DNA of 64,000 nt, taken from the IMG/VR virus record IMGVR_UViG_2667527592_000002. One strand, written 5' to 3'. Under the pieces are notes generated by a model. That model saw only the letters and a program-made list of their open reading frames with translations, was not told where the DNA came from and searched no databases. This DNA is from a virus. Its lineage: Duplodnaviria; Heunggongvirae; Uroviricota; Caudoviricetes. The position numbers and the translations under genes were made by a program. This document shows, one piece after another, positions 14,024 through 43,007 of this stretch; positions within the stretch are counted from its first letter, which is position 1, and each line of letters begins with the position of its first letter.

Positions 14024-14047
14024 AGCAATCTTTCTTTCTGTTTTTCA

Positions 14048-14648: not shown

Positions 14649-14887
14649 ACCGCCTGACCAATCCGGCTGGCATGGGTATCTTTGGATACTGTTCCGTCTT
14701 TAGCCAGCTCCATAAGAATTTTGCGCAAATCTGCCGAACGCCATTCTTCATCAGGAAATTCCTTCTCCATTGCCAACCGCAGATTCCAGGTTGCCATCCT
14801 GAATGGATATTCCCCGCCGAGAGCTTTATCTTGCAGGGCAGCCCGGGAACGCATCACCTGCAAAACCTTCTCTTTTACATCCATCAT
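14627..14887 (-). CDS. hypothetical protein (86 aa)
   Basis: ORF track. Confidence 0.4.
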   Translation of the reverse strand: MMDVKEKVLQVMRSRAALQDKALGGEYPFRMATWNLRLAMEKEFPDEEWRSADLRKILMELAKDGTVSKDTHASRIGQAVWRLEVR

Positions 14888-16641: not shown

Positions 16642-17121
16642 TTACTCACCTTCTTTGATGCGAATGCCTGCGGCGCGTGGCACATTAACTTCCACGATGC
16701 GCACTGTTGGTTTGTACATCTCAATCGCTGTCAGCCAGTCAGCGCCGGTCATACGCTTTTCTGCATCGCCATTAGTCCACTTAACCGGTACACCAATAGC
16801 CTTCATCGCAATTTCTATTTCCCCGGCAATGGCGCTTTTCCCGCAACCAGTAAAACCAGATACAACGACAAGAACTTCGCCTTTTGCTGGTTTTATTTCC
16901 CGCGCCTCCACCTCTGCAATTCGGCACATAGCATCGATATTTGTGTCTTCCTGGCGTTTAACTTCATCCAATAATGCCAACGCGATATCTGGCGAAAAGT
17001 GCTTCATAAAATCGTTAAGCGCATTAATTCGCTGATCGAAAGGCATTACAGGCGCTTCACCAGCAATTTTTGTTTTTTCAGCAATTTCACGAAGCTTTTG
17101 ATAGTCAATTTTGTTTGTCAT
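16642..17121 (-). CDS. P-loop NTPase-like protein (159 aa)
   Basis: Walker A-like VVVSGFTGCGKSA; start overlaps stop of PAPS-reductase-like gene. Confidence 0.5.
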   Translation of the reverse strand: MTNKIDYQKLREIAEKTKIAGEAPVMPFDQRINALNDFMKHFSPDIALALLDEVKRQEDTNIDAMCRIAEVEAREIKPAKGEVLVVVSGFTGCGKSAIAGEIEIAMKAIGVPVKWTNGDAEKRMTGADWLTAIEMYKPTVRIVEVNVPRAAGIRIKEGE

Positions 17122-17996
17122 GCCACTACCTCTTCGAATTTCAACTCCAATTGGTCACCCCAGATTTCACATGATTCGGAACACGAACCAGTATCAAACC
17201 GCTTGGCCTGCACCATCGCCTGATACAAATTTCTGTAGTCGCTGTCGGCATACATTCTGGCAATCCCGTCAAGCGTCAGGTGACCACGGTACATAACGTC
17301 TTTACCTGTTCTGCGATGACCATCCCTGACGTGTTTGCCTGTAACCAGTTCATTAAAAACCCGCATCAGACCTGGTTCGTCTTTACATGCAAGCCCCAGC
17401 TTTTGCGTTGACTTTTTGATGCAAAAAACACAGTTCCCGAGGTGCTCCGGGATTTGCAAATCAAAAGGTTGTTTTCGCCACCACCGGATAACATCCGACT
17501 TATCAAAATCTGACAGCTCGGCAAGATACCGGACGCCCGGTTTCGGTTTCAGCCTACGGGGTTCGTCCGCACGAATACCCAGCCATGTGATGTAATTCCC
17601 TCGCCCAAAATGGTCATCGCAATATTTCGTGAAAGGGGTGAGTTTTAGCCTGTCAGTACAGAACGCGCCGCCGATGTATGGCGTACCGTACTTTTTAACC
17701 ATGTCCATAAACGGTTTAAGCACCGGCATTCGCGTCTGAATATCCTTTGGTTCCCATTCCGTATAACCATTTGGCTGCCCAAGTTCTGGATTTATATCGA
17801 CCTGCAACACCGTTAGCGGTACATTCCAGAACTTCACAACCTCACGAATAAAGCGATACGTCAGAGGATGTTCACAGCCGGTATCCATAAAAATGAAATG
17901 GACGCTAGCGCCAGCTTTTCGCTGTGCTTCCATCAGATGAACGAGATAAGCCGATGTTCGTCCACCTGAAAAGCTGACGACTTGATGCATACTCAC
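17118..17996 (-). CDS. PAPS reductase-family protein (PP-loop ATP pyrophosphatase fold)
   Basis: VVSFSGGRTSAYL ... IFMDTGCEHPLTYRFI parallels the CysH N-terminal region. Confidence 0.8.
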   Translation of the reverse strand: MSMHQVVSFSGGRTSAYLVHLMEAQRKAGASVHFIFMDTGCEHPLTYRFIREVVKFWNVPLTVLQVDINPELGQPNGYTEWEPKDIQTRMPVLKPFMDMVKKYGTPYIGGAFCTDRLKLTPFTKYCDDHFGRGNYITWLGIRADEPRRLKPKPGVRYLAELSDFDKSDVIRWWRKQPFDLQIPEHLGNCVFCIKKSTQKLGLACKDEPGLMRVFNELVTGKHVRDGHRRTGKDVMYRGHLTLDGIARMYADSDYRNLYQAMVQAKRFDTGSCSESCEIWGDQLELKFEEVVA

Positions 17997-17999
17997 GGT

Positions 18000-18692
18000 T
18001 TATTCCTGAACGCGCTTAAACTCGATTACCCATACCCACGGGTTAGATAGCCAGTTATCCTGCCCGTAAATACTGCGCCAGATATCACCAAAACCAACGC
18101 GATAAACAGCTTCCGGCGGCGTAATTTTGTACATCGCCGGAGATGCGCCTTCTGCTTTAGCATCTGCCTCGCTCATATCACGCAGCCGTTCCACACGCAC
18201 GTCGGTAATTTCCAGCAAAATGCGCGATGCCCAGCGCGGCATGTGAATTGATGGACGCCACCCGCCATCAAATTTTTCATTCACAGTGTGAGGTTTCCAG
18301 TCGGCATCATCGGGTATCGACCACAAGCCGTAATCACCCGGCTTTTGCTCACAACTGGCCCGATAAATCCTTGCTGCGTTCTTCTCATCGCCACGACAAA
18401 GGTTGTCGTTCCAGTCCACACTGCAACCATCCTCATTGCCTAATATCGCCCACGCCTCACGGACCCATATGCGATCACCAACGTTACCGAACGGGCATAA
18501 ACCATGTTCAGGTGCATCCATAACGTGGGTATAGACACCATTGCGTTTCTTGGTCGGTTTACGGATAACCAGGCAGTTATCGGCCCTGACATTTTTTACA
18601 GGTCGGCGAGTCTGCGTCTTCCTTCCTTCGAGGATGGCCCTGACCATCTCATCGTTAAAAATCATCCCGCGTTCTTTCATTTTTTGATCCAC
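18000..18692 (-). CDS. hypothetical protein (230 aa)
   Basis: ORF track; N-terminal MIFNDEMVRAILEGRKTQTRR motif common in phage proteins. Confidence 0.5.
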   Translation of the reverse strand: MDQKMKERGMIFNDEMVRAILEGRKTQTRRPVKNVRADNCLVIRKPTKKRNGVYTHVMDAPEHGLCPFGNVGDRIWVREAWAILGNEDGCSVDWNDNLCRGDEKNAARIYRASCEQKPGDYGLWSIPDDADWKPHTVNEKFDGGWRPSIHMPRWASRILLEITDVRVERLRDMSEADAKAEGASPAMYKITPPEAVYRVGFGDIWRSIYGQDNWLSNPWVWVIEFKRVQE

Positions 18693-18696
18693 CTCA

Positions 18697-21283: not shown

Positions 21284-21528
21284 TGTGGTGGCTCCTGCTT
21301 TTCTGCCTTCAATACCATGCGCGAACCATCATCCAGCTCCCAATTAATTTCACCGCCTTCAGCCATGACTAGATGCCAAACGAGTTGTGCGGCCTCGTTG
21401 GTTACATCACGACCGCGATCATTGCCGACACGACGTTTTGTTCCATCCCCTAAGTCACGCATTTTTGCCAACACGATGGTTTTTGATAGCGGTGAAAAAC
21501 CAAGCTGTAGTCGTGCGGTATTACTCAC
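21280..21528 (-). CDS. hypothetical protein (82 aa)
   Basis: ORF track. Confidence 0.4.
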   Translation of the reverse strand: MSNTARLQLGFSPLSKTIVLAKMRDLGDGTKRRVGNDRGRDVTNEAAQLVWHLVMAEGGEINWELDDGSRMVLKAEKQEPPQ

Positions 21529-22322
21529 TGTTTACCTCCTTTTCGAAGCTGTTCGGCGATATCTTCGAGAACGCCATCAGAGAATGAGCGGTCAAAATCG
21601 CCTTCCCGCGCATTAGCCATAAACTCAGTAGAGGTAAGAATCATCCGGGCAATATCCGCGGCGTTCTTCGCAGTATCATCAATAAAACCAGCTTCCCAAG
21701 CAGCCAGCATCCTGTTCGCCACAAAGTAAGCGCCCTCCTTGCGTGCTTCAGTCTTCACTTCATCCAGGAAAGTGTCGGTCGCAGGAGTGGTTTTTTGTGG
21801 TGATAGGGCGATACGAATTGTTTCAAGAGCTGGATCTATTTCCACTGTTGGCACCTTGATAAAACCAAGCTGCACGCCATTCATAATGAACGTGCGGCGA
21901 TCCTCACATATCGCCTTCAGTCTCGCATTCTCCGCAGCCAGCGCCGCGCGATTACCCTCCAGCTCTGCAATGCGCTGTTTTGCGGCATCAAGTTCAATCG
22001 ATAATTTTTCCAACTGCTCTTTATGCTTCTTGTATTCCTGATATGCGTGCCAAGACTGACCTTTGCGCACACTATCAGTAATATCAGTAATCTGTTCTGG
22101 TGTTAGCGTGGTCAGTGGCTGTGCTGGGAAAATCAGCACTTTCCCGGAATCCCAATCAAAACCAGCGTGAATTGACTGAACCTCAACTGAGGGTGTTGAA
22201 CCAATGCTGCCAGGCGAATGAACAACGATCGTTACATCCATATCGCGACGATGGCTGTGGTTATTGGACAAAATACGATTCACCAACTCAGAAAATTTGG
22301 AGAATTTCATGCGGAGCCTCAA
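21525..22322 (-). CDS. coiled-coil protein; C-terminal domain paralogous to 22726..23229
   Basis: Shared block AAENARLK / AAENALARK and similar C-terminal halves. Confidence 0.5.
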   Translation of the reverse strand: MRLRMKFSKFSELVNRILSNNHSHRRDMDVTIVVHSPGSIGSTPSVEVQSIHAGFDWDSGKVLIFPAQPLTTLTPEQITDITDSVRKGQSWHAYQEYKKHKEQLEKLSIELDAAKQRIAELEGNRAALAAENARLKAICEDRRTFIMNGVQLGFIKVPTVEIDPALETIRIALSPQKTTPATDTFLDEVKTEARKEGAYFVANRMLAAWEAGFIDDTAKNAADIARMILTSTEFMANAREGDFDRSFSDGVLEDIAEQLRKGGKQ

Positions 22323-22729
22323 TATGCAAAATAGACAGTTGCCACACCGTTATAGTGATCAAACGATACGGCGTTTACTTCATAGCTGGCAGGAAGCTTC
22401 GAGCCGAGAACGTATCCGGGCCACGTTTTCCATGGAATTTCTCTACTCTCACTATCCCCATATACCGTACATCCAAGCGAACCTACAGCCTCGTCAGAAC
22501 GTTTGCCGCATGTTATGAAACCTATATTTTTCTTGCTGGCCTTAATGGCGATTGGGTGAACACTGGCTGATGCATTGGCAGCACGCTGTGACTGTTGGTT
22601 TGCGATATTCGCAGAGTTCGCAGCAGCTACAGCAGCCGTGGTCGCGGCGGTAGATGCCACAATAACTGCTGAAGCCTGCGCCTGTTGGGTAATGGTCAGC
22701 AATGCCGCCACAAAAATCATCTTCTTCAC
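22319..22729 (-). CDS. secreted protein with signal peptide, C-terminal aromatic residues (136 aa)
   Basis: MKKMIFVAALLTITQQAQA signal-like N-terminus; ends VYFAY. Confidence 0.5.
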   Translation of the reverse strand: MKKMIFVAALLTITQQAQASAVIVASTAATTAAVAAANSANIANQQSQRAANASASVHPIAIKASKKNIGFITCGKRSDEAVGSLGCTVYGDSESREIPWKTWPGYVLGSKLPASYEVNAVSFDHYNGVATVYFAY

Positions 22730-23229
22730 TTGTCAGCTCCTTTGCGAATCTGTTCCGCCCATTCTTCAAGGGATTTCTCCGCATATTCACCGGACAGGCC
22801 ATCAATCGGGTGCGATTCATTAGCCAACTCTTCTTTCGCTGACAGAATCATGCGCGTAACGTCGAAAACTTCACGTAAAGACTTATTGATAAATCCGTGG
22901 TTGAAAGCAGCAGCAAGACGGCTTGCGGTATAGTTAATCCCCTCGTTGCGAGCCTCCGCACGAATTTCAGCCAGGAAAGCATCGGTGACTGGCATATTTC
23001 CTGTTGCCTTCATGGCCTCCAAAATAACCAGAACGCCATCTCTCCCTACCACCTCGCAGATAACCTCGGTGTTGTCGCCAACAACATCGCAGAATGCCTG
23101 AACTGCTTTACGAGCAAGTGCATTCTCCGCCGCTAGCGCAGCACACGCTTTCTCAAGTCGGGAAATTTCCGTTACATACTCAGCGTTACGCTCTGCCAGT
23201 TGCGCGGGCGTTAAACCTTCAGACTTCAT
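22726..23229 (-). CDS. coiled-coil protein, paralogue of 21525..22322 C-terminal domain (167 aa)
   Basis: ORF track; paralogy seen by eye. Confidence 0.5.
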   Translation of the reverse strand: MKSEGLTPAQLAERNAEYVTEISRLEKACAALAAENALARKAVQAFCDVVGDNTEVICEVVGRDGVLVILEAMKATGNMPVTDAFLAEIRAEARNEGINYTASRLAAAFNHGFINKSLREVFDVTRMILSAKEELANESHPIDGLSGEYAEKSLEEWAEQIRKGADK

Positions 23230-27022: not shown

Positions 27023-27334
27023 ATGAAAAAAATAGATTTCACTTATTCTGCCGCCACAATCCAGCGACGTTTCAGTCTCATAAGGGAAGTGGAACTATCA
27101 AAAAACTTGTATCAAATTCTACTGGATGAAGAGTTTTCACTGATGGTTATAGCAGAAAAATTAGCTATGCCGAACGACCGGCACAAGGTCATAGCCAGCC
27201 TCGATCTGGTGACAAACAGATACTGGGAGAAAGAGGAACTACATGAGGCGGGAGTAATTCGTGACCTGATGGAGAATTCCGTTCCCCGCCGCTATCGTGC
27301 AGGGAACGGCATCTCCGTGGTTAAAGGTGTTTAA
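27023..27334 (+). CDS. hypothetical protein (103 aa)
   Basis: ORF track. Confidence 0.4.
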   Translation: MKKIDFTYSAATIQRRFSLIREVELSKNLYQILLDEEFSLMVIAEKLAMPNDRHKVIASLDLVTNRYWEKEELHEAGVIRDLMENSVPRRYRAGNGISVVKGV

Positions 27335-27723
27335 AGCTCACCTGCGCGCTGTTTTTCAAGCACAGATTTAACATTTGGCGCTTTCCCTTTAAAAGAATGG
27401 AAAGTGCCACATTTTTCTGTTTTAACCTCGCGCAGAGCTTCGCCATCGGCGTTCTGCCATTGATGGGATAATGTCATATCACCGCGAGAAGGAACATCCA
27501 GCGAGTACAGCGTGTAAGTTCCCCCCATCTCCGCATACTCCTGGAACACATAGCTCATTACGTCAGATTCAGTTTTTCGGTGTGCGTTATCAACCTTATT
27601 CCCATTCAGAAATATGGCATCTGGATAGATTTTTATATCAAACCGACCGCACTTAACTTGTAAATTTCCGGCGCTCGCGATCAAAGGGAAAGACGCCAGT
27701 AAAGCAATAGCCAATCTTTTCAA
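27331..27723 (-). CDS. secreted protein with signal peptide (130 aa)
   Basis: MKRLAIALLASFPLIASA signal-like N-terminus. Confidence 0.5.
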   Translation of the reverse strand: MKRLAIALLASFPLIASAGNLQVKCGRFDIKIYPDAIFLNGNKVDNAHRKTESDVMSYVFQEYAEMGGTYTLYSLDVPSRGDMTLSHQWQNADGEALREVKTEKCGTFHSFKGKAPNVKSVLEKQRAGEL

Positions 27724-27743
27724 TTCTGCCTCCGCTGCGTAAC

Positions 27744-28367
27744 TTATTGCCCGTATTTTTTACACCATTGCTCTGCCATTTGTTTGGCTAAAGGCCCGGC
27801 TACTGCACTGTATTCTGCTGTTTTACTTTGCACACATGAAGCAGATGGTTTTTTATTTCGCTGCTCGGTTAGTTTGCGCTCATAAGCCATCATGCTATCG
27901 AACCCGGCAATATCACTTTGGCGAAGCATTCCCTTTTTAACCAAAAATTGCTGCCCCTCTGGCACCAACGCAAGCATAAAAAGTGGTTGCAATAACTCAC
28001 CTAATCCTTGCTGGCGATACACTTCGAATTGCTGCCATCCCTGACTTAATCTGGAAAGAGTATCTTTGGTTGAATAACCTGTTTTTGTTATAGCTTTGTC
28101 CGTCAGATATGCTGTATATGCAAAAACGCAAAAGTCAGTTTTACCAATAAACTGAGTTCCAACAGGCCGTAATGGAATGCCCTCCCTCTTGCAAAAGTCC
28201 ATAATTGCCGCTTGTGAATGATCCCCACCAGCGTTATTCATAACCTGCTGCCCTGCCCTGAATTGTGCAGGTAACGCAGTTGCATTGGCAGTATTAACAG
28301 ATACGCATCCCAACATAGCCGCGAGCGCGGCCCCTAAAACCCTTAACTTCACTACACCATCCTTCAT
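27744..28367 (-). CDS. secreted/periplasmic protein with signal peptide (207 aa)
   Basis: Hydrophobic N-terminus ending ANA; ORF track. Confidence 0.5.
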   Translation of the reverse strand: MKDGVVKLRVLGAALAAMLGCVSVNTANATALPAQFRAGQQVMNNAGGDHSQAAIMDFCKREGIPLRPVGTQFIGKTDFCVFAYTAYLTDKAITKTGYSTKDTLSRLSQGWQQFEVYRQQGLGELLQPLFMLALVPEGQQFLVKKGMLRQSDIAGFDSMMAYERKLTEQRNKKPSASCVQSKTAEYSAVAGPLAKQMAEQWCKKYGQ

Positions 28368-29947: not shown

Positions 29948-31133
29948 TTTCCTGAAAAACCAGGACGGGCGCTATATCACTGACGGCCTGTCCTCTAAGG
30001 ACTTCACGCGTTTATTCGACCTTATCAGGAAAGAACAAACCCGTAAGCGCCGACAAGCTCACCGGACGCTGACGCCAGGCAGACTTAGGAACAAATCCGC
30101 CGAAGATATTCTCAAGTTAGGGAAGAAAAAAGGCGGCACGTTCTTCACGCGAGACGACCTGAAAGGTTTCGAAAAGCTACGGAGTAAAACGCGCGAAAAA
30201 TATGACAGCAAGACGGCTGGCATCACATACGCCCAGCTGGTGGCATCCAGCCAGGCAATCGATATTAAGCGTGCAAATAACGCCGTGGATGACGGATCTG
30301 GTATCAAAAGAGCTACACCCGTATCTCTTCGCCACAATGTGATTAATATCCGCGTAGAAGCATCGGATATATCCGTCCACCAGCACCATATCGTCCGGAT
30401 ACGCTTTGAAGAATGGGATCAGATGGTTGATGACATCGCAGAAGACGATAAATCAGCTCTCAAAATAACTAAATCACTGTGCGCCGGGCGAGTGTCTTTC
30501 GATTGTGACTGTGGTCGCCATCAATACTGGTATCGCTACATCGCCACTGCGGGTAACTTTGCCCTGGCACCGCCAAAAGAATACGCCTATCCAAAAGTTC
30601 GCAACCCTAAGCTGCAAGGTGTCGCCTGTAAACACGTGATTCACGCAATGACGCGGTTACAGTCCGCCAGTTGGCAAATGAGTATTGCTCGTGCGCTACA
30701 AAAGGCTGCAACGCAAATTGCATTTGGTGACGATCGCCGCCGTACAACCAAACACTTCTCAAAAGAAGACGAGAAGGAGTTTAATCGCAATCGTAGCAGT
30801 AAAACGAACGTTGAAGCCGCCAAACGCGAATGGAGGCTCTATCAGAAGCGCCAGGCAGCTTTAAGTACAAAACTGGCAAAGGACAACGGCAAGATCGACA
30901 AACTACGTGACCAATTGACCAAGGCCAGAAAGTTGTCAGACGCACAGAAAAAACGGGCGGCAGCAAAAGAAGCGGCCTTGCAACGTGAGAAACAGAAAAA
31001 CAAGGAGCTTCAGCAACGCCTTGCCGATCAGTTCGCACTGAAGAAGCAGGCGTTCATTGATGCGCTTGTCATGGCTGGAACACCACCAGCACAAGCTGAA
31101 AAAATGTTCATGGAGTATGTAAAAAAAGCATAA
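29940..31133 (+). CDS. hypothetical protein with SWIM-type zinc-finger-like motif and basic coiled-coil C-terminus
   Basis: FDCDCGRHQ ... ACKHVIHA (CxCx(n)CxH pattern); 397 aa. Confidence 0.5.
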   Translation: MPDFLKNQDGRYITDGLSSKDFTRLFDLIRKEQTRKRRQAHRTLTPGRLRNKSAEDILKLGKKKGGTFFTRDDLKGFEKLRSKTREKYDSKTAGITYAQLVASSQAIDIKRANNAVDDGSGIKRATPVSLRHNVINIRVEASDISVHQHHIVRIRFEEWDQMVDDIAEDDKSALKITKSLCAGRVSFDCDCGRHQYWYRYIATAGNFALAPPKEYAYPKVRNPKLQGVACKHVIHAMTRLQSASWQMSIARALQKAATQIAFGDDRRRTTKHFSKEDEKEFNRNRSSKTNVEAAKREWRLYQKRQAALSTKLAKDNGKIDKLRDQLTKARKLSDAQKKRAAAKEAALQREKQKNKELQQRLADQFALKKQAFIDALVMAGTPPAQAEKMFMEYVKKA

Positions 31134-31142
31134 ACCACACAT

Positions 31143-31176
31143 AGCCTAGCTGCCTAGGCTAGGCTTTCATCTTTTT
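31143..31176 (+). terminator. hairpin AGCCTAGC-TGCCTAG-GCTAGGCT followed by T-rich run
   Basis: 8-bp stem; T-tract overlaps stop codon of convergent AT-rich gene. Confidence 0.5.
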
Positions 31177-31895
31177 GAAAAATCAATTTCCGTTTTATCA
31201 AATAAATTTGAAATATCAGCAACCAATTTATTAAAATCATGATCGCCATTATAAAGCGAAGTCTTCTTTATTGCCATTACAAAATCATATAACTTTTCTG
31301 GGGAGTCAATACCAACCCCTCTACTTTTAAAAAGCTCAATGATAACTCCAACATCATCATATAATAACTTTATTGCCGCTATAATCTCTTTTTGCTGCCT
31401 AAGAAATCTCTCAAGTTCATTTTTATTTTCATCCATAATTCTTTTGTTGAATTGTGTATCATTAATACTTTTTATTATTTCAGTCTCTTTTATTTGCAAC
31501 GCCTTTCTTTTATTTTGATCCATGTCGGCATCCAAATACCTTATCTCTGTATATATTTTACTTGTTAGCTTTGATACGCAAAGAGTGACAATCGGAGCTG
31601 CAATTGATGCAATAATTCCAAAAATAAATGGCAAGCCAAAATGATAAAACCAAGGAGACAAAACGCCTTCATAAACTAGAGGAATCTTACCTCCAACAAA
31701 TGTTACAGATAAAGTATATAGGATATCATCCTTTGACTTCATCAATATTAGTATATCTTTCCAATTAATAATTAAAAAAGAAATGAATATATATGCAAAC
31801 ACTTTATTAAAAAGCTTGTCTTTTATGGCATCTCCAAAAGATACTTTGATTAGATCATTTTCAGTCAATTTTTCTGTTGATGAATCTGTATTCAT
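31167..31895 (-). CDS. AT-rich two-TM membrane protein with cytoplasmic coiled-coil domain (242 aa); candidate exclusion/abortive-infection protein
   Basis: Locus visibly far more AT-rich than flanks; TM segments VFAYIFISFLIINW and FGLPFIFGIIASIAAPIVTLCV; K/E/I/N-rich coiled-coil C-terminus. Confidence 0.6.
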   Translation of the reverse strand: MNTDSSTEKLTENDLIKVSFGDAIKDKLFNKVFAYIFISFLIINWKDILILMKSKDDILYTLSVTFVGGKIPLVYEGVLSPWFYHFGLPFIFGIIASIAAPIVTLCVSKLTSKIYTEIRYLDADMDQNKRKALQIKETEIIKSINDTQFNKRIMDENKNELERFLRQQKEIIAAIKLLYDDVGVIIELFKSRGVGIDSPEKLYDFVMAIKKTSLYNGDHDFNKLVADISNLFDKTEIDFSKR

Positions 31896-31957
31896 ATAAA
31901 CTACCGGGATTACTAATATCTATTTTATGAAAATAGCGGTCATCCAGACCGCCAAAC

Positions 31958-32317
31958 TCAAATACCAACCAAGCTTTCAAGAGGAATGCCAAACTGGGAA
32001 TGTAAACGGCGAATCATAGGTAACGTCAAATTTCGTGTCCCATTTAGCACTTCGTAAACACGATTTGACTTACCAATCGCCGGTTCCAGATCCTTCACGG
32101 TCAGCCCTTGCTGTTCCATACGGAATTTAATGGCCTCAATAGGTGATGGTGGCTCAATTGGGTAATGTTTTTTCTCGTACTCCTCAATGAGAAGACACAT
32201 GACCTCAAAGAAATCACCTTCCGGGGTGTTCATTTCCGGTTCGTTATCGAACATCGGTTCGACCGCACGCAGTGCGGCCTCATAATCTTGTTCTGTACGG
32301 ATAGGTTTAATGTTCAT
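31958..32317 (-). CDS. higA: HigA-family antitoxin (HTH)
   Basis: C-terminal GKSNRVYEVLNGTRNLTLPMIRRLHSQFGIP matches HigA HTH region; downstream of higB. Confidence 0.8.
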   Translation of the reverse strand: MNIKPIRTEQDYEAALRAVEPMFDNEPEMNTPEGDFFEVMCLLIEEYEKKHYPIEPPSPIEAIKFRMEQQGLTVKDLEPAIGKSNRVYEVLNGTRNLTLPMIRRLHSQFGIPLESLVGI

Positions 32318-36017: not shown

Positions 36018-36923
36018 ATGAGATCAGTCGCTTTCAAAAATATCTTCATCTATCGTCTTTCACGCGAAGTTAACTGGGATACCGCAGAAGTAAATGCTGC
36101 CCTTAGCAAGTTTGTGTTTACCCCATGCGGTTCTCAGGATATTGCTAAAGCTGGTTGGACCCCCGTCCTTGGCGACAACCTCACCCATGAATACAAGGGT
36201 TTTCTTCTGATACAGCATAAACGAGAGGAAAAAATCCTACCTTCTCAAGTGCTCAAAGAAGAGCTACAGAAAAAAATCCTGAAACTTGAAGAAGAACAAG
36301 ACAGAAAGCTGAAGAAGACCGAAAAAGATTCGCTGAAGGATGAAGTGCTTCACTCTCTTCTTCCTCGTGCTTTCACGAGAAAATCAGTCGCTAAAATCCT
36401 GATAGACCGAAGCAATCATCTGGTTTTTGTCGAGGCGAGCAGTGCTAAAAAAGCAGAGGATCAGCTGGCTTTGTTACGGAAATCTCTTGGCAGCTTGCCC
36501 GTTGTCCCCTTCTCTCCGAAAGACCCATTAGAACTGACCATCACTGGCTGGATTAAAAATGGCTTCCCGAACGGTTTCCGTGCCGGTGAGGAAGCGACCT
36601 TAAAAGCATTGCTTGATGATGGCGGCGCGGTCCGCTGCAAAAAAGTGGACCTGCTATCCGACGAGATCATGAGTCATATAGAAGCTGGTAAGGTTGCAAC
36701 CACAGTTGCGGTTAACTGGCAAGACCGTGCATTTTTCAGACTGAATGACGATATGAGTATCAAGGCTTTGTCGTTCAGCGACGAATTGTACGACCAGAAC
36801 GACGATATTGATCGAGAGGATGTTGCTCAACGATTTGACGCTGACTTTATCCTGTTTACTGCTGAATTATCAGCGATGTTCACTTCGCTGGTGGAGGCCG
36901 TTGGTGGTGAAGCAGAACGTTAA
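36018..36923 (+). CDS. rdgC: recombination-associated protein RdgC
   Basis: Collinear with E. coli RdgC as I recall it: [45 protein letters not shown]. Confidence 0.85.
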
Positions 36924-36936
36924 CAATAGACCTCTT

Positions 36937-37587
36937 ATGGTGAGTCTTTGTGATTTCACGGGGAAAATGGTCGCCCCCTGGCTGGAGCATGGTATAGATG
37001 CTGTTATCGTCGATCCACAACACGCAAAGACCACAGATGAGCTGATGCAATCAGGCGCAGTTCTGACACGTATCAGTGCGATTATCGATAGTGATGAAGT
37101 TTATGCTTTTCTCCGAAATAATTTACAACGTATTGTGTTTTTAGCTGGTTTTCCGCCGTGCACGGACCTTGCTGTTTCCGGTGCGCGCTGGTTTGCACAT
37201 AAGGCTGACAAAGATCCGGTTTTCCAGTTCAAAGCGATGCAAGTCGTCTGGCAGTGTTACGACATTGCAAAGATGATTGGTTGCCCGTACATGATTGAAA
37301 ACCCGGTCAGCCAAATATCGACATTCTGGCGTAAACCTGATCACATCTTCCATCCTTACCACTTCACTGCATATTGCAAGGAAGACAATTACACCAAAAA
37401 AACATGCCTCTGGAGCGGGCAGGGCTTTGTCATGCCTGATGCCCTAATGGACGAATCATTAGGCAAGCCAGATAACAGAATCCATACCGCGCCACCTGGG
37501 CCTGAAAGGGCTAATTTTCGAAGTGCTACTCCGAATGGATTCGCAAAAGCAGTTTTCGAAGCAAATAAGGGGGTGCTCTATGAGTAA
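36937..37587 (+). CDS. short DNA (cytosine-5) methyltransferase-like protein
   Basis: GFPPC (PC catalytic motif), MIENPV (ENV motif); only 217 aa, no obvious target-recognition domain. Confidence 0.45.
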   Translation: MVSLCDFTGKMVAPWLEHGIDAVIVDPQHAKTTDELMQSGAVLTRISAIIDSDEVYAFLRNNLQRIVFLAGFPPCTDLAVSGARWFAHKADKDPVFQFKAMQVVWQCYDIAKMIGCPYMIENPVSQISTFWRKPDHIFHPYHFTAYCKEDNYTKKTCLWSGQGFVMPDALMDESLGKPDNRIHTAPPGPERANFRSATPNGFAKAVFEANKGVLYE

Positions 37588-38485
37588 ATCTCTAGTAAGC
37601 ACAGCCATAGAAAGACATGATTCGATGGCGGAAATTAGCTATATGCGCACCATTCGGACTCCGGATGAATACGAGCGTCCGATCTTCAAATGGGTAGGCG
37701 GTAAATTTTCAGAGTTGCCTATAGTGCTTGAGCATCTACCACACGGTAAGCGGTTAATAGAACCATTCGTTGGTGGCGGTTCCGTATTTACGAATGCAGG
37801 ATTTCGCCACAACCTGCTTAATGATATTAACGGTGACTTGATTAACTTCTATCAGACATTGCAGCGAGAAAGACATTCTCTAGTCACGCTGTCATATAGT
37901 TTTTTCCAAAATTACAACAACGCTGACGCTTACCTCGAAGTGCGTGAGGCATTTAACAGAGGAAAGTATGACCAACTACATCATGCTGCTGCCTTTTTGT
38001 ACCTTAATCGGCACTGTTTTAATGGCGTAACACGGTACAACCAAAATGGCGAGTTCAACGTAGGGTATGGTAAATACAAAGCGCCCTACTTCCCACATGC
38101 AGAGATGGAGGCATTTTTGGCTGATGACGTACTCAAAAACACTTCCTTTGTATCAGGTGACTTTGCTGGCGTCATCGAGGCGGCTGGTGAAGGCGATGTG
38201 ATTTTTTGCGATCCGCCGTATGAACCGCTGCCGGATACAGAAGGGTTTACCAGTTATTCAGGAAATAGCTTCCGTTTCGACGAACAGAAACGGCTGGTAT
38301 CTCTATTGGTGGAAGCCCACCAGCGCGGCGCTAAGGTAGTGATTACAAATAGTGGTGCTCCAAACATCCGTGAACTATATGAAGGAAACGGGTTTAAAGT
38401 ACATCATATGGCAGCCAGACGGTCGGTTTCCTGCAAGGCGTCAACACGTGTAGTTGCTAACGATATAATTGCAATAATGAAGTAA
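37580..38485 (+). CDS. Dam-family DNA adenine methyltransferase
   Basis: KWVGGK, EPFVGGGSVF and DPPY motifs; start overlaps upstream stop. Confidence 0.85.
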   Translation: MSKSLVSTAIERHDSMAEISYMRTIRTPDEYERPIFKWVGGKFSELPIVLEHLPHGKRLIEPFVGGGSVFTNAGFRHNLLNDINGDLINFYQTLQRERHSLVTLSYSFFQNYNNADAYLEVREAFNRGKYDQLHHAAAFLYLNRHCFNGVTRYNQNGEFNVGYGKYKAPYFPHAEMEAFLADDVLKNTSFVSGDFAGVIEAAGEGDVIFCDPPYEPLPDTEGFTSYSGNSFRFDEQKRLVSLLVEAHQRGAKVVITNSGAPNIRELYEGNGFKVHHMAARRSVSCKASTRVVANDIIAIMK

Positions 38486-38486
38486 A

Positions 38487-38516
38487 AAACGCCGCAGTAG
38501 CGGCGTTTACTTTTTC
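38487..38516. terminator. bidirectional rho-independent terminator between dam-like and glnS
   Basis: AAACGCCGC-AGTA-GCGGCGTTT with T-runs on both strands. Confidence 0.6.
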
Positions 38517-38533
38517 ATGTGGCGAAATACCTA

Positions 38534-40195
38534 TTAACCTAACTTCGCCCAGGTATCACGCAGCCCAACGGTGCGGTTAAATACCGGTTTTTCCGCCGTA
38601 GAATGGCGGCTGTCGAGGCAGAAATAACCTTCACGCTCAAACTGGAATGCTTTACCCGCTACCGCTTCTTTCAGCGACGGTTCAGCAAAGCCTTGTTTGA
38701 TCACCAGCGATTCCGGGTTAATCACCGACAGGAAATCATCCGCAGCACCTGGGTTCGGTACACTGAACAGACGGTCGTACAGGCGAATTTCAACCGGCAG
38801 CGCATGTGCCGCGCTCACCCAGTGAATAACGCCTTTCACTTTACGACCATCTGCCGGATCTTTGCTTAAGGTGTCGGCGTCATAAGTACAGAAGATGGTG
38901 GTGATATTGCCTTCGGCATCTTTCTCCACGCGTTCAGCCTTAATGACGTAAGCATTACGCAGACGCACTTCTTTACCCAGCACCAGACGTTTGTACTGCT
39001 TGTTAGCTTCTTCGCGGAAATCGGCGCGGTCGATCCAAATCTCACCGCTAAACGGCACCTGACGGCTACCCATTTCCGGTTTGTTTGGATGGTTCGGCAT
39101 GGTGACCATTTCGCCTTCGCCCTGGTAGTTTTCGATAACCAGTTTCACCGGATCGATAACCGCCATTGCGCGCGGGGCATTTTCGTTGAGATCTTCACGG
39201 ATGCAGGATTCCAGCGACGCCATCTCAATGGTGTTGTCCTGCTTGGTCACGCCGATGCGTTTGCAGAACTCACGAATAGAAGCCGCAGTGTAACCACGAC
39301 GACGCAGACCGGAAATGGTCGGCATACGCGGGTCATCCCAGCCTTCAACGTGCTTGTCGGTCACCAGCAGGTTCAGCTTACGCTTGGACATCACGGTGTA
39401 TTCCAGATTCAGGCGCGAGAATTCGTACTGGCGCGGGTGAACAGGAATGGTGATGTTGTCCAGTACCCAGTCATACAGACGACGGTTGTCCTGGAACTCA
39501 AGCGTACACAGAGAGTGCGTAATACCTTCCAGCGCATCGCTGATGCAGTGGGTGAAGTCGTACATCGGGTAGATGCACCACTTGTTGCCAGTCTGGTGGT
39601 GTTCAGCAAACTTAATACGGTACAGCACCGGGTCGCGCATCACGATAAACGGCGAAGCCATGTCGATTTTCGCACGCAGGCAGGCTTTACCTTCTTCAAA
39701 ACCACCGGCACGCATTTTTTCGAACAGCGCCAGGTTCTCTTCAACGCTGCGGTCGCGGTACGGGCTGTTTTTACCCGGCTGCGTCAGGGTGCCGCGGTAT
39801 TCGCGGATCTGTTCCGGCGTCAGTTCGTCAACATACGCCAGGCCTTTGTTGATCAGTTCAACAGCATAGGCATGGAGTTTGTCAAAATAATCGGAGGAGT
39901 AACGGATGTTGCCAGACCAGTGAAAACCTAACCATTCAACGTCGTTTTTAATCGACTCAACGTACTCGATATCTTCTTTTACCGGGTTAGTGTCGTCGAA
40001 ACGCAGGTTGCACTGGCCTTTATAGTCCTGGGCGATCCCGAAGTTCAGGCAGATAGATTTCGCATGACCAATATGCAGATAGCCATTCGGTTCCGGCGGG
40101 AAACGGGTATGTACTGTGGTGTGCTTACCACTGGCCAGATCTTCATCGATGATCTGACGAATAAAGTTAGTCGGGCGGGCTTCTGCCTCACTCAT
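38534..40195 (-). CDS. glnS: glutaminyl-tRNA synthetase
   Basis: 553 aa; near-identical to E. coli GlnRS from memory ([17 protein letters not shown]...; HIGH in YLHIGHAKS; MSK in VMSKRKL). Confidence 0.95.
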
Positions 40196-40369
40196 TGTGG
40201 ATTCCTCAAAGCGTAAACAACGTATAACAGCGTATGATCTTATAAGCCGAATAGGCTGACAACCACTAGTTGATTAGAAATTGCTTTCTATCGTTATTTC
40301 AATAATGAGCTTTTTCATGAAGCCCACTTTTGCGCATAAGTAAATTAATGATAAATGGTACACAATCGG

Positions 40370-40428
40370 AACCAAAAAGGATGTAAAGGTGCACCAAATT
40401 AGTGGTGTATTGGTACACCTTTGGTTCA
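40370..40428. promoter_or_regulatory. long imperfect palindrome (GGTGCACC / GGTGTA..TACACC), candidate centromere or terminator
   Basis: AAAGGTGCACC ... GGTACACCTTT inverted arms with outer GAACCAAA / TTTGGTTC. Confidence 0.3.
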
Positions 40429-40463
40429 AGACTTTTTAAGTTCTAAAACCAACCTGAAAGACT

Positions 40464-40751
40464 TTATTTTGCTTCCTCAGACTCCGCTAACATGAGGATA
40501 GCATGGCGGATCATATTCAATTTGCTGCGATTATGCTTTTTACTTAACGCATCAAGTACTTGGTACTCGTATTCATTGAAACCAACACGAATAGATTTAA
40601 AATCACGTGGAGCGTCCTTATCGAGCACTTTGTTGTCTTCTGGTTGCTCACCCGGCACCAAATCAGCCTTACTGGCAAAATCCTCAATTCGGCGTTCAAG
40701 ATCGGGGTCTTTTACTTCGGGGGCTTTTACCGATTTACGAGGCTTAATCAC
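40464..40751 (-). CDS. ribbon-helix-helix centromere-binding protein (ParG-like)
   Basis: 95 aa; C-terminal RHH-like RVGFNEYEYQVLDALSKKHNRSKLNMIRHAIL; overlaps parA stop. Confidence 0.6.
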   Translation of the reverse strand: MIKPRKSVKAPEVKDPDLERRIEDFASKADLVPGEQPEDNKVLDKDAPRDFKSIRVGFNEYEYQVLDALSKKHNRSKLNMIRHAILMLAESEEAK

Positions 40752-41385
40752 TTAATAACTCCTTAACCAACATCTGGATTTCACCTTTAGCTTTCCCGTT
40801 GTCCATCTCAACAACGCCCTTCCCTTCAGCCATGCAATCGCGGTAAACCTTACGATCACGAATGATGGTTTTCAGCAACTTCAGTTGCGGATATTCAGCC
40901 AGGTACTCTTTGGCCTCATTAGTTTCATTCACAACCGGATTGGATGGGGCCATTGTTAAGACTGCGAACGCCTTAATGCTAGGATTAGGCATCAGGTCCA
41001 AAGCCTCTTCAAACACTTCAACAAAGTGTGCCAGCGTGTCTAAATCTGGTTGAGATGGTCTGAATGGGACCAACACAATATCTGCAGCGGTTATGCCTGT
41101 ACGCATCTCTTTGCTATCGCGCCCGGCTGTATCAACAACTACAAATTCATAACGCTTATCCAGATCGAGAAGTGTTTCTCGAATATTACCAAACTTCTGG
41201 ACACAATGAATTACAGGAGAAACCTCTGCCGTGTTACGGTCAGCTGCCCAGCGGGCAGCTGTTCCTTGCTTGTCTGCATCTAGTAACACTACATCCTTAT
41301 TTGCGCGGGCAAGCTCCGCACAGATGTTTACGCTTGTGGTTGATTTTCCACAGCCACCTTTTTGGCTGACTACCAATATAATCAT
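40744..41385 (-). CDS. parA: ParA-family partition ATPase (small type Ib, ParF-like)
   Basis: Deviant Walker A SQKGGCGKST, VVVDTAG Walker B; ATG 41385 after GAGGAA RBS. Confidence 0.85.
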   Translation of the reverse strand: MIILVVSQKGGCGKSTTSVNICAELARANKDVVLLDADKQGTAARWAADRNTAEVSPVIHCVQKFGNIRETLLDLDKRYEFVVVDTAGRDSKEMRTGITAADIVLVPFRPSQPDLDTLAHFVEVFEEALDLMPNPSIKAFAVLTMAPSNPVVNETNEAKEYLAEYPQLKLLKTIIRDRKVYRDCMAEGKGVVEMDNGKAKGEIQMLVKELLSD

Positions 41386-41625
41386 ATCCGTTCCTCGGTG
41401 TGATTTTGGTATCAAAACGGTTCCAGATAAGAGCCTTTTTGATGCGGGACAGGCTCTATAATGGAGTCATGAATGTTTGGCAAAGTATAACATCAATCAG
41501 ACCAAATACACCTTATATTGCATCCTATTTAACACGAAATCAGCCCTAAATTGGAACCAGATACAAAATTGCACCATAACAGCACCTAACTGGTGCCAGA
41601 TTAACACTAATTAGACACCATTAAG

Positions 41626-41654
41626 GCATAAAAAAGGCTGCAATTTGCAGCCTT
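41626..41654 (-). terminator. rho-independent terminator downstream of parR
   Basis: AAGGCTGCA-ATT-TGCAGCCTT perfect 9-bp stem; T5 follows on minus strand. Confidence 0.6.
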
Positions 41655-41672
41655 ACACCAGCACATCTTCTG

Positions 41673-42017
41673 TCAATCAGGTAGAGAGTCAGCCAGATTG
41701 CGCGCCGACGCGCTTTTGGCAACAACTTGCTCCTTCACTGGCTCAATGGAGGCAGGGCGCTCCTCAACCGCAGCTGGTAGTTCCAGGAAGGATGCCAGCA
41801 TTTTTCGGATCAGCTCCGGGTTGTTGTCTTCGGTCAGCAGGGAAGCCAGTAATCCTGGAAGCCTGCTATCGACTTCTCCCAGCGCAAGCCCTGCCAACAA
41901 TGCGGTTCTTGCCATATCGCTATGTTTTTTTATCTTCTCGCTCGCCGCCTTTTCATTGGCATAAGCCTCTGGGCGAAGATAAATCATCACTTTCTTACGT
42001 TCCTGAGACATGGACAT
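41673..42017 (-). CDS. parR: ParR-like adaptor (type II partition)
   Basis: 114 aa directly downstream of parM; ARTALLAGLALG resembles ParR N-terminal region. Confidence 0.6.
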   Translation of the reverse strand: MSMSQERKKVMIYLRPEAYANEKAASEKIKKHSDMARTALLAGLALGEVDSRLPGLLASLLTEDNNPELIRKMLASFLELPAAVEERPASIEPVKEQVVAKSASARNLADSLPD

Positions 42018-42024
42018 TACCTCG

Positions 42025-42981
42025 TTAACCGATTGCTTTCAGGCCATGAACAAGAGCAAGTTGCGGGTCATCCGCCACGAAGAAACGGTCATCACGAATA
42101 TTAACTTGCTCGCGAATTGCATCTGCCACCAGCGGTGCGCCACCACCGATCACCATGACATGCGTATATCCTTTAAAGTCGCCAATCACATCAAGAACTC
42201 GGGTACGCAGACGGTCAATGCTTGCGGCAATGGCCTTTTTCACATCACCAATCGCTGATGGGTCATTGATATTGTCGTTCAGATAATCTTCATCGTGGCG
42301 GTTAATAATGAGCTGATCAACATTGTAATTTGACGTTTCGGTATTGGCCCTTGCAAGTGCTTGCCTTACTTCCCTGGTGACCAGTGATACACCAAGATTC
42401 GAATCGCCAAAAACACGGGAAACTGCCGTCATTTGCCCGGCGACCATTGAAACATCAAGGGTAGTTCCACCCAAATCGACGATAAGAACAGAATGGGCAG
42501 GGTTCAGATTGTCGCACAGGCCAATTCCTGCCGGAATAGACTCCGGTCGTACCGTAACTTTCTTAATCGTGAACACATTGCCTTTATTCAGCGTGACGGG
42601 GCGCATAAGGCTGGCTTTCTTGCGCTCGATGTTATCGAGATTGTATTGCGCGTCGTCGTCGTAAAACTCCGCCAGAGGCAGCGTGACCACAATTTCTACT
42701 TCCTGCGGCTCAATACCGCTTGTCAGCAGGGCATGGTGAACAGCCAGGACGTTAAGCGGGCTGTATTGCCATTCCACGTTATTCGTCGGCAGAACATCTG
42801 GCGAGATCAAATCATACGAATACTTCTCGTCGTCAATGACATAGTTAAACGGCTTGCCAGCACCAAATGTTGCTGACCATCCGCGCTTAAAGCTGTTAGG
42901 ACTGATGTGAGTGCGAGTTTCCCCGTCGTGCTCCCACAGCATTTTGATATTGGTTGAACCATCATCGATAAAAATGCGCAT
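42025..42981 (-). CDS. parM: ParM/StbA actin-like segregation ATPase
   Basis: MRIFIDDGSTNIK ... HISPNSFKRGW ... VLAVHHALLTSG collinear with R1 ParM; ATG 42981 after GGAG. Confidence 0.85.
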   Translation of the reverse strand: MRIFIDDGSTNIKMLWEHDGETRTHISPNSFKRGWSATFGAGKPFNYVIDDEKYSYDLISPDVLPTNNVEWQYSPLNVLAVHHALLTSGIEPQEVEIVVTLPLAEFYDDDAQYNLDNIERKKASLMRPVTLNKGNVFTIKKVTVRPESIPAGIGLCDNLNPAHSVLIVDLGGTTLDVSMVAGQMTAVSRVFGDSNLGVSLVTREVRQALARANTETSNYNVDQLIINRHDEDYLNDNINDPSAIGDVKKAIAASIDRLRTRVLDVIGDFKGYTHVMVIGGGAPLVADAIREQVNIRDDRFFVADDPQLALVHGLKAIG

Positions 42982-43007
42982 CTTCTTGCTCCACTTCTGA
43001 GACACAT

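Follow-up and report, generated by a model that had tools for sequence, protein, structure and literature searches.

A host-type glutaminyl-tRNA synthetase gene and its transcription signals in a D6-type phage-plasmid

We analysed a stretch of 64,000 nucleotides of viral DNA (IMG/VR record IMGVR_UViG_2667527592_000002; Caudoviricetes), referred to here as the window, in which a gene for glutaminyl-tRNA synthetase (GlnRS), glnS, lies between a Dam-family methylase gene and two genes that are codirectional with and upstream of it, orf61 and a ParA-type gene (Table 1). The methylase gene is convergent with glnS, and in alignments its final three codons differ from those of relatives in which the site is empty. 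The initial annotation had placed glnS between a Dam-like methylase and parG–parA; the methylase and the ParA-type ATPase are borne out by Pfam, but ParG is not. The label was dropped since the 95-residue product of orf61 has no Pfam match even at E <= 10. The spacer between glnS and orf61 could be the centromere or operator of the orf61–ParA pair, and a terminator scan found no canonical terminator on its minus strand.

Table 1. Features at and around glnS in the window
Feature	Position	Strand	Basis
D12-class N6-adenine methyltransferase (Dam-family), D6 orf63 homologue	37580..38485 (alternative start 37523)	+	Pfam PF02086, D6 annotation
Native glnS Rho-independent terminator	38481..38508	-	Terminator scan of both strands, RNA fold, chromosome comparison
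Short 3' UTR without REP elements	38509..38533	-	Chromosome comparison
glnS CDS, GlnRS of 553 residues	38534..40195	-	ORF list, Pfam, structure match, K-12 comparison
Captured 5' leader and promoter region	40196..40283	-	Alignment to chromosomal glnS upstream DNA
Native glnS sigma-70 promoter, TTGTCA-17 nt-GATCAT	40234..40262	-	Promoter scan and chromosome alignment
Element-specific spacer with inverted repeats	40284..40463	.	Alignments; not chromosomal
orf61 (95 residues)	40464-40751	-	ORF list; D6 orf61
ParA-type ATPase	40744-41415	-	Pfam; D6 orf60

The wider setting is that of a phage-plasmid. Positions 32708–64000 form a single 31.3 kb block aligned to phage D6 at 97.3%, 54.7 of the 64 kb of the window align to this phage, and P1-type tail, baseplate and head genes are present on both sides of glnS. 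The element is collinear with D6, including the P1-type structural, partition and immunity modules, and is assigned to the D6 type on this basis; the related PLSDB plasmids examined are typed as rep_cluster_1704. Two toxin–antitoxin systems, phd-doc and higBA, are carried by the D6-type element. The earlier proposal that glnS lies inside the phage-plasmid and not in chromosomal DNA is upheld by the D6 block and by the phage genes to either side, the flanks being phage-plasmid sequence rather than nagE/chiP.

The product of glnS is a full-length class I Glu/Gln-tRNA synthetase. PF00749, the catalytic Rossmann-fold domain, covers residues 28–337 (E = 6e-130), and PF03950 and PF20974 are also present, giving the two C-terminal beta-barrel anticodon-binding domains; the HIGH (LHIGHAKS) and MSK (VMSKRK) motifs are both intact in the translation. 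The closest PDB structures, aligned end to end, are those of E. coli GlnRS (1gtr, 1qtq and 1o0b), whereas GluRS chains score far below them, in line with specificity for Gln rather than Glu. Compared with the K-12 enzyme, it contains four substitutions (V97I, Q106K, I112V and D510E), with 549 of 553 aligned residues identical, and terminates in AKLG* instead of AKVGE*, so that the last three residues differ. The two genes are 96.5% identical in nucleotide sequence and the proteins ~99.3%; the initial description of a full-length enzyme nearly identical to that of E. coli is therefore confirmed. Given ~99.3% identity to a characterized enzyme, the element GlnRS should charge host tRNA-Gln.

The chromosomal likeness extends beyond the coding region. 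The promoter hexamers are the same in K-12, E. ruysiae and all plasmid glnS alleles, and a Dam site (GATC, 40236–40239) lies within the -10 hexamer of the element promoter. Derepression of glnS in dam mutants is reported by Plumbridge & Soll (1987), cited in PMC12369378, and is seen by RNA-seq in the latter. Upstream of the gene, chromosomal homology stops at ~40283 (+/-5), ~88 bp before the ATG. On the downstream side, the terminator consists of the stem AAACGCCGC-TACT-GCGGCGTTT plus a T-run, folds as a hairpin with a 9 bp stem (38487–38508) and directly abuts the stop codon of the methylase gene. The same hairpin is found 3' of chromosomal glnS in Salmonella, Citrobacter, Enterobacter, Pseudescherichia and E. 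coli; the distance from stop codon to hairpin is 25–30 nt in the chromosomes of Salmonella, Citrobacter and Enterobacter, but 69–201 nt, with REP elements, in those of E. coli. In the element this distance, counted from the first base of the stop codon, is 28 nt, versus 69–201 nt with REP elements in the chromosomes of E. coli and E. ruysiae. Chromosomal homology ends immediately past the T-run, which marks the 3' end of the captured segment. The hairpin scores as a terminator on both the plus and minus strands; the bidirectional terminator that the initial annotation took to be shared with the Dam-like gene is indeed bidirectional, but by origin it is the native terminator of glnS and arrived with the gene. 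The GC content is 0.53 over positions 39001–40000 versus ~0.44–0.49 in the adjacent kilobases. The insert, at ~38481–40283 (~1.8 kb), is evidently the whole chromosomal glnS transcription unit, comprising promoter, leader, coding sequence and terminator, and its boundaries are demonstrated here by alignment.

The same junctions recur well beyond the window. They are present in the genome of phage D6, which derives from virions and was reportedly described by Gilcrease & Casjens in Virology in 2018, and glnS with these junctions is carried by ~96 complete PLSDB plasmids from E. coli, Salmonella, Shigella and E. fergusonii, as well as by 70 complete E. coli plasmid records. The plasmids nearest to the window element (99.9–100%) include NZ_CP027309.1. 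In an index of public assemblies, 2,047 blocks contain the exact protein; all contexts displayed are of the D6 type, and no chromosomal donor appears among them. The recurrence of the flanks and junctions in other phage-plasmids, a comparison that the initial annotation had proposed, also establishes that glnS at this site is not an assembly chimera. There are also relatives in which this site is empty: in NZ_AP027678, NZ_CP115379 and NZ_LR890273 a different terminator stands between the Dam gene and orf61. The empty junction is spanned by 13 PLSDB plasmids, and the empty-site D6-type relatives number at least 13–18. By this comparison, glnS is evidently an accessory gene of the D6-type group. 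Its capture was evidently a single event in the D6 lineage, because D6, the window and an E. fergusonii plasmid with flanking genes of just 73–90% identity have the same upstream junction and terminator.

Carriage of the element gene goes together with retention of the chromosomal one. Chromosomal glnS was found in 5,425 of 5,426 complete E. coli genomes, at 5,428 chromosomal places, and 81 plasmid copies occur across the same set (~1.5%). Strain AR_0128 has an intact chromosomal glnS alongside the plasmid copy; hosts keep chromosomal glnS beside the element copy.

The plasmid alleles are mosaic. They have a common, plasmid-specific 5' third (~500 nt), whereas their 3' parts match differing E. 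coli chromosomal alleles (best-breakpoint Fisher test p = 8.9e-9; 4e-6 after correction). The 5' haplotype was not detected on E. coli chromosomes, being at least ~4% divergent from essentially all of the 5,426, and the 3' half of the window allele is closer to a KTa008-like chromosomal allele, whereas that of D6 is K-12/O157-like. This pattern indicates recurrent chromosome-to-plasmid gene conversion at glnS. In the donor comparison, E. ruysiae was the only Escherichia species among the matches listed; E. albertii, E. fergusonii, E. marmotae and the cryptic clades lay outside it. The full ORF is present in eight of eight good-quality plasmid alleles, and dN/dS between plasmid alleles is 0.017–0.027 at dS of up to 0.24. 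This ratio is not taken as proof of selection on the plasmid gene, because chromosomal conversion confounds it: a low value could arise by conversion from a selected chromosomal copy without selection on plasmid glnS. Apparent pseudogenes in NZ_CP031917.1 and NZ_MK356558.1 were rejected as assembly errors on account of their scattered single-base indels and unannotated neighbours. The glnS of CP088384.1 has a single +1 insertion at nt 1608, a frameshift that may be real. At the level of direction, the recombination evidence at glnS runs from chromosome to plasmid.

We consider it probable that an Escherichia-type glnS unit was captured once and now acts as a moron, supplying the lysogen with a second GlnRS. 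Its promoter and terminator are its own, both being of chromosomal origin, and the gene, unrelated to phage functions, is missing from collinear relatives and distinct in GC content. An ancestor of the D6 lineage would have taken up the unit between the Dam-type methylase gene and orf61–parA, displacing the original intergenic terminator, and every lysogen would then gain a second source of an essential enzyme from an autonomously expressed gene. The element gene is predicted to be expressed and active. It would be transcribed from its own promoter, with the Dam site in the -10 hexamer, and read-through from the par operon may supplement its expression. Because this promoter would be derepressed when unmethylated (~twofold on the chromosome), output is predicted to rise with the transient undermethylation of lytic replication, and also with the copy number of the element. 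The position of glnS beside a Dam gene may be coincidental. The element copy recombines repeatedly with chromosomal glnS. What the selected benefit might be is a more tentative matter; we favour only cautiously the possibility that it lies in additional or reserve GlnRS capacity, serving the lysogen or the synthesis of phage proteins. As 13 to ~18 relatives thrive without glnS, any benefit must be conditional.

A neutral passenger, that is, a gene acquired by illegitimate recombination that hitch-hikes while chromosomal conversion refreshes its ORF, would account for the demonstrable conversion tracts and for synonymous divergence that, in the most divergent comparison, is 3–5 times below the level in neighbouring genes; the minority of relatives without glnS also show no obvious defect. 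We nevertheless regard this account as unlikely. Refreshment does not readily explain the ~500 nt plasmid-specific 5' third, which has escaped replacement by E. coli alleles and is free of disabling mutations in the good-quality alleles, nor the fact that even the E. fergusonii plasmid has kept the promoter hexamers, ribosome-binding site and terminator. The allele of pYU39_89 resides in a Salmonella host but remains of the E. coli/D6 type, intact and 99.9% identical to D6, evidently with no refreshment from the Salmonella chromosome. Moreover, a packaging-limited phage would not be expected to keep a useless 1.8 kb over dS of ~0.1–0.24.

Host dependence offers another explanation, in which the element GlnRS makes chromosomal glnS dispensable or down-regulated and loss of the element is penalized, so that the gene would serve as a device for plasmid maintenance. 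It has a precedent in the cysS gene of plasmid pBT1 in S. Typhimurium D23580 (PMC6333337), the same idea is put forward for D6-like glnS in PMC6799933, and glnS adjoins the partition modules. Against such addiction, full-length chromosomal glnS is present in essentially all E. coli genomes, carriers included; allele flow from chromosome to plasmid implies that both copies persist together; the element already has phd-doc and higBA; and empty-site relatives are maintained. At the sequence level, chromosomal glnS is intact in AR_0128; in the pBT1 case the chromosomal sequence is likewise unchanged, expression alone differing. On balance, we judge this explanation to be rather improbable.

We give little credence to the broader proposal that plasmid glnS goes beyond spare capacity and is a selected element–chromosome interface, either a Dam-gated dependency module of the pBT1 cysS type or a 1.7 kb homology anchor for allele exchange and reversible integration. 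In the dependency variant, the Dam-gated -10 hexamer would tie GlnRS output to the replication and methylation state of the element. If the homology-anchor variant were true, D6-type elements would be vehicles for the transfer of glnS alleles between Escherichia lineages.

Immunity to a GlnRS-targeting inhibitor or toxin, which the initial annotation had listed among the possible roles, is disfavoured and in our view highly unlikely. Its model would be a resistant synthetase paralogue such as the plasmid-borne mupirocin-resistant IleRS. I97, K106 and V112 do cluster in all E. coli-type plasmid alleles, within the 5' segment that resists conversion, and a doubled glnS dosage could give modest tolerance. 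However, the element GlnRS is ~99.3% identical to the host enzyme, with four substitutions and unchanged catalytic motifs; two of the three characteristic residues, I97 and V112, are native in Salmonella or Citrobacter GlnRS; the E. fergusonii plasmid allele has neither I97 nor K106, and pl_91H1 lacks K106. To our knowledge, enterobacteria are not known to have a natural toxin specific for GlnRS. Finally, an assembly artefact or mis-joined chromosomal DNA, for which nothing speaks beyond the normal location of glnS between nagE and chiP, is effectively refuted by the identical junctions in D6, ~96 complete plasmids and thousands of assemblies, by the phage genes on both sides and by a 5' haplotype distinct from the E. 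coli chromosomes examined.

Housekeeping aminoacyl-tRNA synthetase genes are rare cargo of temperate phages and plasmids, yet this one is carried by an element found in ~1.5% of complete E. coli genomes and also in Salmonella and Shigella. If glnS raises fitness, stabilizes the element or creates dependence, it would be a second maintenance strategy based on an essential translation gene, after pBT1 cysS, and would bear on how phage-plasmids persist, among them some that carry resistance genes. The presence of glnS on a D6-type element is itself already known, being annotated in MF356679 and discussed in PMC6799933, and adds little as a finding because it is in GenBank and the literature. What the present analysis adds is the exact anatomy, namely a whole transcription unit whose -10 hexamer contains a Dam site and which is devoid of REP elements, together with evidence of recurrent chromosome-to-plasmid conversion and a set of empty-site relatives usable as natural controls.

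The closest known counterpart is orf62 of Escherichia phage D6, annotated in MF356679/NC_050154 as 'glutaminyl-tRNA synthetase, similar to E. coli GlnS'. Gene, position, junctions, promoter and terminator all agree with those in the window, at 98.0% nucleotide and 99.6% amino-acid identity (95.8% over the surrounding 6 kb); the alleles differ in the origin of their 3' halves. The same cassette is found in pYU39_89, a D6-like plasmid prophage of Salmonella Typhimurium ST213, for which PMC6799933 terms glnS a moron, suggests a role in fitness or maintenance and states that the gene is present 'in all D6-like genomes'; as far as searched, the paper contains no description of cassette boundaries, terminator origin or mosaicism. 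Read in this form, the statement does not hold for the wider rep_cluster_1704 group, in which at least 13 empty sites evidently occur. Chromosomal E. coli glnS (b0680) has in common with the element copy the promoter hexamers, Dam site, ribosome-binding site, 549 of 553 residues and terminator stem. Nevertheless, the element copy differs in lacking the nagE/chiP context and the REP elements, in its C-terminal tripeptide and in its divergent 5' haplotype.

Two further systems place a synthetase gene on a mobile element. Like element glnS, pBT1 cysS encodes a housekeeping class I synthetase and is borne by a large plasmid in cells that also have the gene on the chromosome. In the pBT1 case the plasmid copy is the required one, the chromosomal cysS being barely expressed though unchanged in sequence, and a maintenance function has been suggested for it (PMC6333337). 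The requirement for the pBT1 copy was established by experiment, whereas element glnS is known here from sequence. Furthermore, pBT1 CysS is 89% identical in amino-acid and 79% in nucleotide sequence to its chromosomal counterpart, while element glnS is ~97% identical in nucleotide sequence and exchanges sequence with the chromosome. The GlnRS proteins of mega phages and of uncultured gut phage contigs are phage-borne too, but they are only 50–57% identical in amino-acid sequence to the element enzyme, and for this reason are independent, ancient acquisitions rather than host-identical cassettes with a host promoter.

The captured glutaminyl-tRNA synthetase gene (glnS) encodes a protein with the full class I Glu/Gln tRNA synthetase architecture (PF00749 at residues 28–337, E = 6e-130; PF03950; PF20974), and both the HIGH and MSK motifs are found in its translation. 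Its top matches among solved structures are those of E. coli GlnRS (1gtr, 1qtq and 1o0b), which align end to end. Relative to K-12 GlnRS, it carries four substitutions (V97I, Q106K, I112V and D510E) and ends in AKLG* rather than AKVGE*; it is ~99.3% identical to the host enzyme. The coordinates and the near-identity to E. coli GlnRS given in the initial annotation are correct.

Features of the glnS insert and its flanks
Feature	Position	Strand	Basis
D12-class N6-adenine methyltransferase (Dam), left of glnS	ends 38485	+	Pfam
Native glnS terminator hairpin, AAACGCCGC-loop-GCGGCGTTTTTT	38487-38508	-	chromosome comparison
glnS ORF, 553 codons	38534..40195	-	ORF list, Pfam, solved-structure match
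Native glnS promoter, TTGTCA-17 nt-GATCAT	40262..40234	-	promoter scan, chromosomal homology
orf61 (95 aa, no Pfam match), ParA-type ATPase, then StbB and ParM	right of glnS	- (same as glnS)	Pfam

The insert is an entire chromosomal transcription unit of ~1.8 kb without REP elements. The region was aligned to the K-12 chromosome and to phage D6, and the sequences up- and downstream of glnS were compared across several chromosomes. The upstream limit of chromosomal homology is at ~40283, ~88 bp before the glnS ATG, and the captured segment takes in the native promoter and ribosome-binding site; a Dam site (GATC, 40236–40239) sits within the -10 hexamer. At the other end, similarity to the chromosome stops exactly after the terminator T-run, which abuts the Dam stop codon. 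A boundary a few codons short of the glnS stop was rejected, since similarity runs through this T-run. Dam and glnS had been described as sharing a bidirectional terminator; a hairpin does lie between them, but it is the native glnS terminator and was therefore imported with the gene. In Salmonella, Citrobacter, Enterobacter and Pseudescherichia, the terminator follows the stop codon by 25–30 nt; E. coli and E. ruysiae have it 69–201 nt downstream, with at least one REP element in between; in the element copy it is 28 nt past the stop, without REP elements. The GC content of the insert is 0.53 versus ~0.44–0.49 in the surrounding kilobases. The number of REP elements in this gap differs among E. 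coli lineages and is zero in other genera; KTa008, AR_0128 and an APEC B2 strain have a gap of ~70 nt, compared with ~200 nt in K-12, O157 and E. ruysiae.

An element-specific spacer (40284–40463) separates the captured promoter from the orf61 stop codon. It contains inverted repeats (AAAGGTGCACCAA / TTGGTACACCTTT) along with TGGTACAC, itself repeated, its folding exceeds that of shuffled controls (z = -2.3), and it could be a centromere or operator of the orf61-ParA pair. Relatives that lack glnS between the Dam gene and orf61 (empty sites) have a different spacer that is unalignable to it. A terminator scan found no canonical minus-strand terminator in the spacer, so transcription of the orf61-parA operon may read through into glnS. 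As for the parG-parA pair of the initial annotation, Pfam supports the ParA-type ATPase; the name ParG is unsupported, because the 95-aa ORF (40464–40751, minus strand) matches no Pfam family even at E ≤ 10. The C-terminal third of this ORF, which lies downstream of parA, could by eye be a ribbon-helix-helix.

The whole window is a D6-type phage-plasmid. Phage D6 aligns to 54.7 of the 64 kb, with 32708–64000 forming a single block (97.3%) in which glnS is flanked on one side by P1-type genes for tail and baseplate and on the other by genes for partition, capsid and sheath; neither nagE nor chiP, the chromosomal neighbours of glnS, occurs in the window. The proposed location of glnS inside the phage-plasmid is thus borne out. 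The 6 kb around glnS are 99.9–100% identical to ~90-kb plasmids such as NZ_CP027309.1, and 138 PLSDB plasmids match this region, 96 of them over ≥ 80% of its length; they come from E. coli, Salmonella and Shigella, with one E. fergusonii plasmid at lower identity. The exact window GlnRS is found in 2,047 blocks of public assemblies, with a D6-type neighbourhood in 10 of the 10 contexts listed. Comparison of the junctions with other phage-plasmids, as initially suggested, revealed the same neighbourhood in D6 and the PLSDB plasmids, and a chimera or other assembly artefact is excluded. A 699,698-bp (~700-kb) contig (UASF01000009.1) and a 216-kb plasmid of AR_0128 (CP021720.1) each enclose a D6-type region that encodes the exact window GlnRS; these could reflect chromosomal integration, a cointegrate or misassembly, and bear on the idea that glnS homology could mediate integration.

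The backbone is strongly modular, as seen when window 36018–43005 is compared with relatives. Identity between the window and D6 is only 84% for rdgC and 97–99.7% for dam, orf61, parA, stbB and parM; in plasmid pZ1323HEC0010-2, orf61-parA is ~75% identical and the adjoining stbB-parM 98–99%. The par cassette occurs in two types, either of which is found both with and without glnS. Two forms also exist of the methylase region (36808–38485): in the window and D6, Dam and an orf64-like protein are separate; at this position plasmid p702_18_3 encodes a Dam-family protein of 762 aa, and two assemblies encode fused proteins of 718 and 757 aa that, like P1 Dmt, combine a C5-methylase with a D12 domain according to Pfam. 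All forms lie directly upstream of the identical glnS terminator. Stretches without a D6 counterpart (10484–11691, 13203–15092, 17114–18694, 21286–23119 and 27247–28315) are presumably variable cargo, and a GC dip to 0.333 at 31001–32000 (~0.45–0.50 around it) falls by collinearity near D6 higA/orf73. The sole tRNA in the 64-kb window is tRNA-Met (CAT; 284–359, plus strand), and no tRNA-Gln partnering GlnRS is present. D6 has no annotated tRNA at the collinear position, with Ser, Thr and Asn tRNAs nearby outside the window span; a Met tRNA is reported for the D6-like plasmid prophage pYU39_89 in PMC6799933.

Several rep_cluster_1704 plasmids matched both flanks over a span ~1.85 kb shorter. 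The order at the empty sites of NZ_AP027678.1, NZ_CP115379.1 and NZ_LR890273.1 is Dam gene, a different terminator (GCCCCGCCTGGGGC), a ~100-bp spacer and an orf61 homologue, with no trace of a glnS remnant. Thirteen PLSDB plasmids, four of them from Shigella dysenteriae, span the empty junction, and a few others, of greater divergence, align to just half of that junction; we estimate that roughly 85% of D6-type plasmids are filled. The statement in PMC6799933 that glnS occurs in 'all D6-like genomes' is therefore true of the D6 clade proper and does not extend to the wider group. The E. fergusonii plasmid NZ_CP099330.1 has the upstream junction and terminator in common with the window even though its flanking genes are only 73–90% identical, which argues for a single capture followed by spread and divergence.

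The glnS alleles themselves form a mosaic in the variable-site table. Identity is 96.4–99.9% among plasmid alleles (E. fergusonii plasmid, ~95%), 95.2–97.7% between these and the chromosomal alleles of E. coli, and 97.4–98.8% within the latter. Nucleotides ~60–500 carry a plasmid-specific haplotype, including I97, K106 and V112, common to all E. coli-type plasmid alleles. The 3' half follows the K-12/O157 pattern in D6 and pYU39_89 and resembles the KTa008 chromosomal allele in the window type, and pZ1323HEC0010-2 shares A163T and L276Q with E. ruysiae. For D6 (5' window-like, 3' K-12-like), the best breakpoint gave a Fisher p = 8.9e-9, or 4e-6 once corrected for about 450 breakpoints. Gene conversion from chromosome to plasmid is recurrent. 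Among 5,426 complete E. coli genomes, the 5' 496 nt are matched at ≥ 99% in only 35 records, fewer than the 77 plasmid copies, and the first chromosome among the evenly spaced matches listed (~rank 92) stands at 96.0%; the haplotype is therefore plasmid-specific in this sample. Since I97 and V112 are native in Salmonella or Citrobacter GlnRS and the 3' UTR lacks REP elements, a donor just outside sampled E. coli is suggested. In the most divergent comparison, dS was 0.24 in glnS and 0.58–1.17 or saturated in its neighbours (3–5 times lower in glnS), a difference compatible with homogenisation by host alleles, with strong codon constraint or with both.

A lysogen would transcribe the cassette from its own promoter. 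The chromosomal glnS promoter is derepressed on Dam loss, according to β-galactosidase fusions and site mutants (Plumbridge & Soll, 1987, as described in PMC12369378), and glnS rises by 1.08 log2 in Δdam RNA-seq (PMC12369378). Owing to this sensitivity and the Dam site in the -10 hexamer, output from the element is expected to scale with copy number and to rise transiently in under-methylated DNA, e.g. during rapid lytic replication. The product would simply add GlnRS activity, and our preferred, still tentative, reading is that it is selected for the additional or back-up charging capacity that it offers to the lysogen or to phage protein synthesis.

That glnS is a neutral passenger seems unlikely. 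In all comparisons its dN/dS is 0.017–0.027, a value that by itself is no proof of selection acting on the plasmid copy, because conversion imports chromosomally filtered variation. Function is better argued from the intact unconverted 5' third, from the conservation, extending to the E. fergusonii plasmid, of promoter, ribosome-binding site and terminator, and from the retention of 1.8 kb by a packaging-limited phage. The ORF is full-length in 8 of 8 good-quality plasmid alleles; glnS is unannotated in three plasmid records, two being error-ridden assemblies and the third (CP088384.1) carrying one +1 insertion, at nt 1608, which could be genuine or spurious. Addiction of the kind known for pBT1, the S. 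Typhimurium D23580 plasmid with its own cysS (PMC6333337), is rather less probable. PMC6799933 suggests, by analogy with that gene, a role of D6-like glnS in host fitness or plasmid maintenance; no later papers testing this were found in the literature. Hosts retain their own glnS: 5,425 of the 5,426 E. coli genomes have the gene, in 5,428 chromosomal places and 81 plasmid copies, and in AR_0128 the chromosomal gene is intact and the plasmid copy encodes exactly the window protein. Immunity to an inhibitor is highly improbable, because the enzyme is so close to the host's (~99.3%) and the residues that set it apart are ordinary natural variation.

A phage-plasmid glnS is itself already known: orf62 of D6, recorded in GenBank as 'glutaminyl-tRNA synthetase, similar to E. 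coli GlnS', and glnS of pYU39_89 are the same gene as that of the window. The increments here are its anatomy (a whole transcription unit, free of REP elements, whose -10 hexamer holds a Dam site), the relatives with an empty site and the recurrent gene conversion from chromosome to plasmid; they are useful for experimental design and unsurprising to a specialist. Structurally, the gene qualifies as a prophage moron: it brings its own promoter and terminator, differs in composition from its surroundings and is missing from the empty-site relatives. It is like pBT1 cysS in kind and unlike it in degree of divergence. Other phage-borne GlnRS, from very large phages and from contigs of uncultured gut phages, share just 50–57% identity with the window enzyme and are independent acquisitions.
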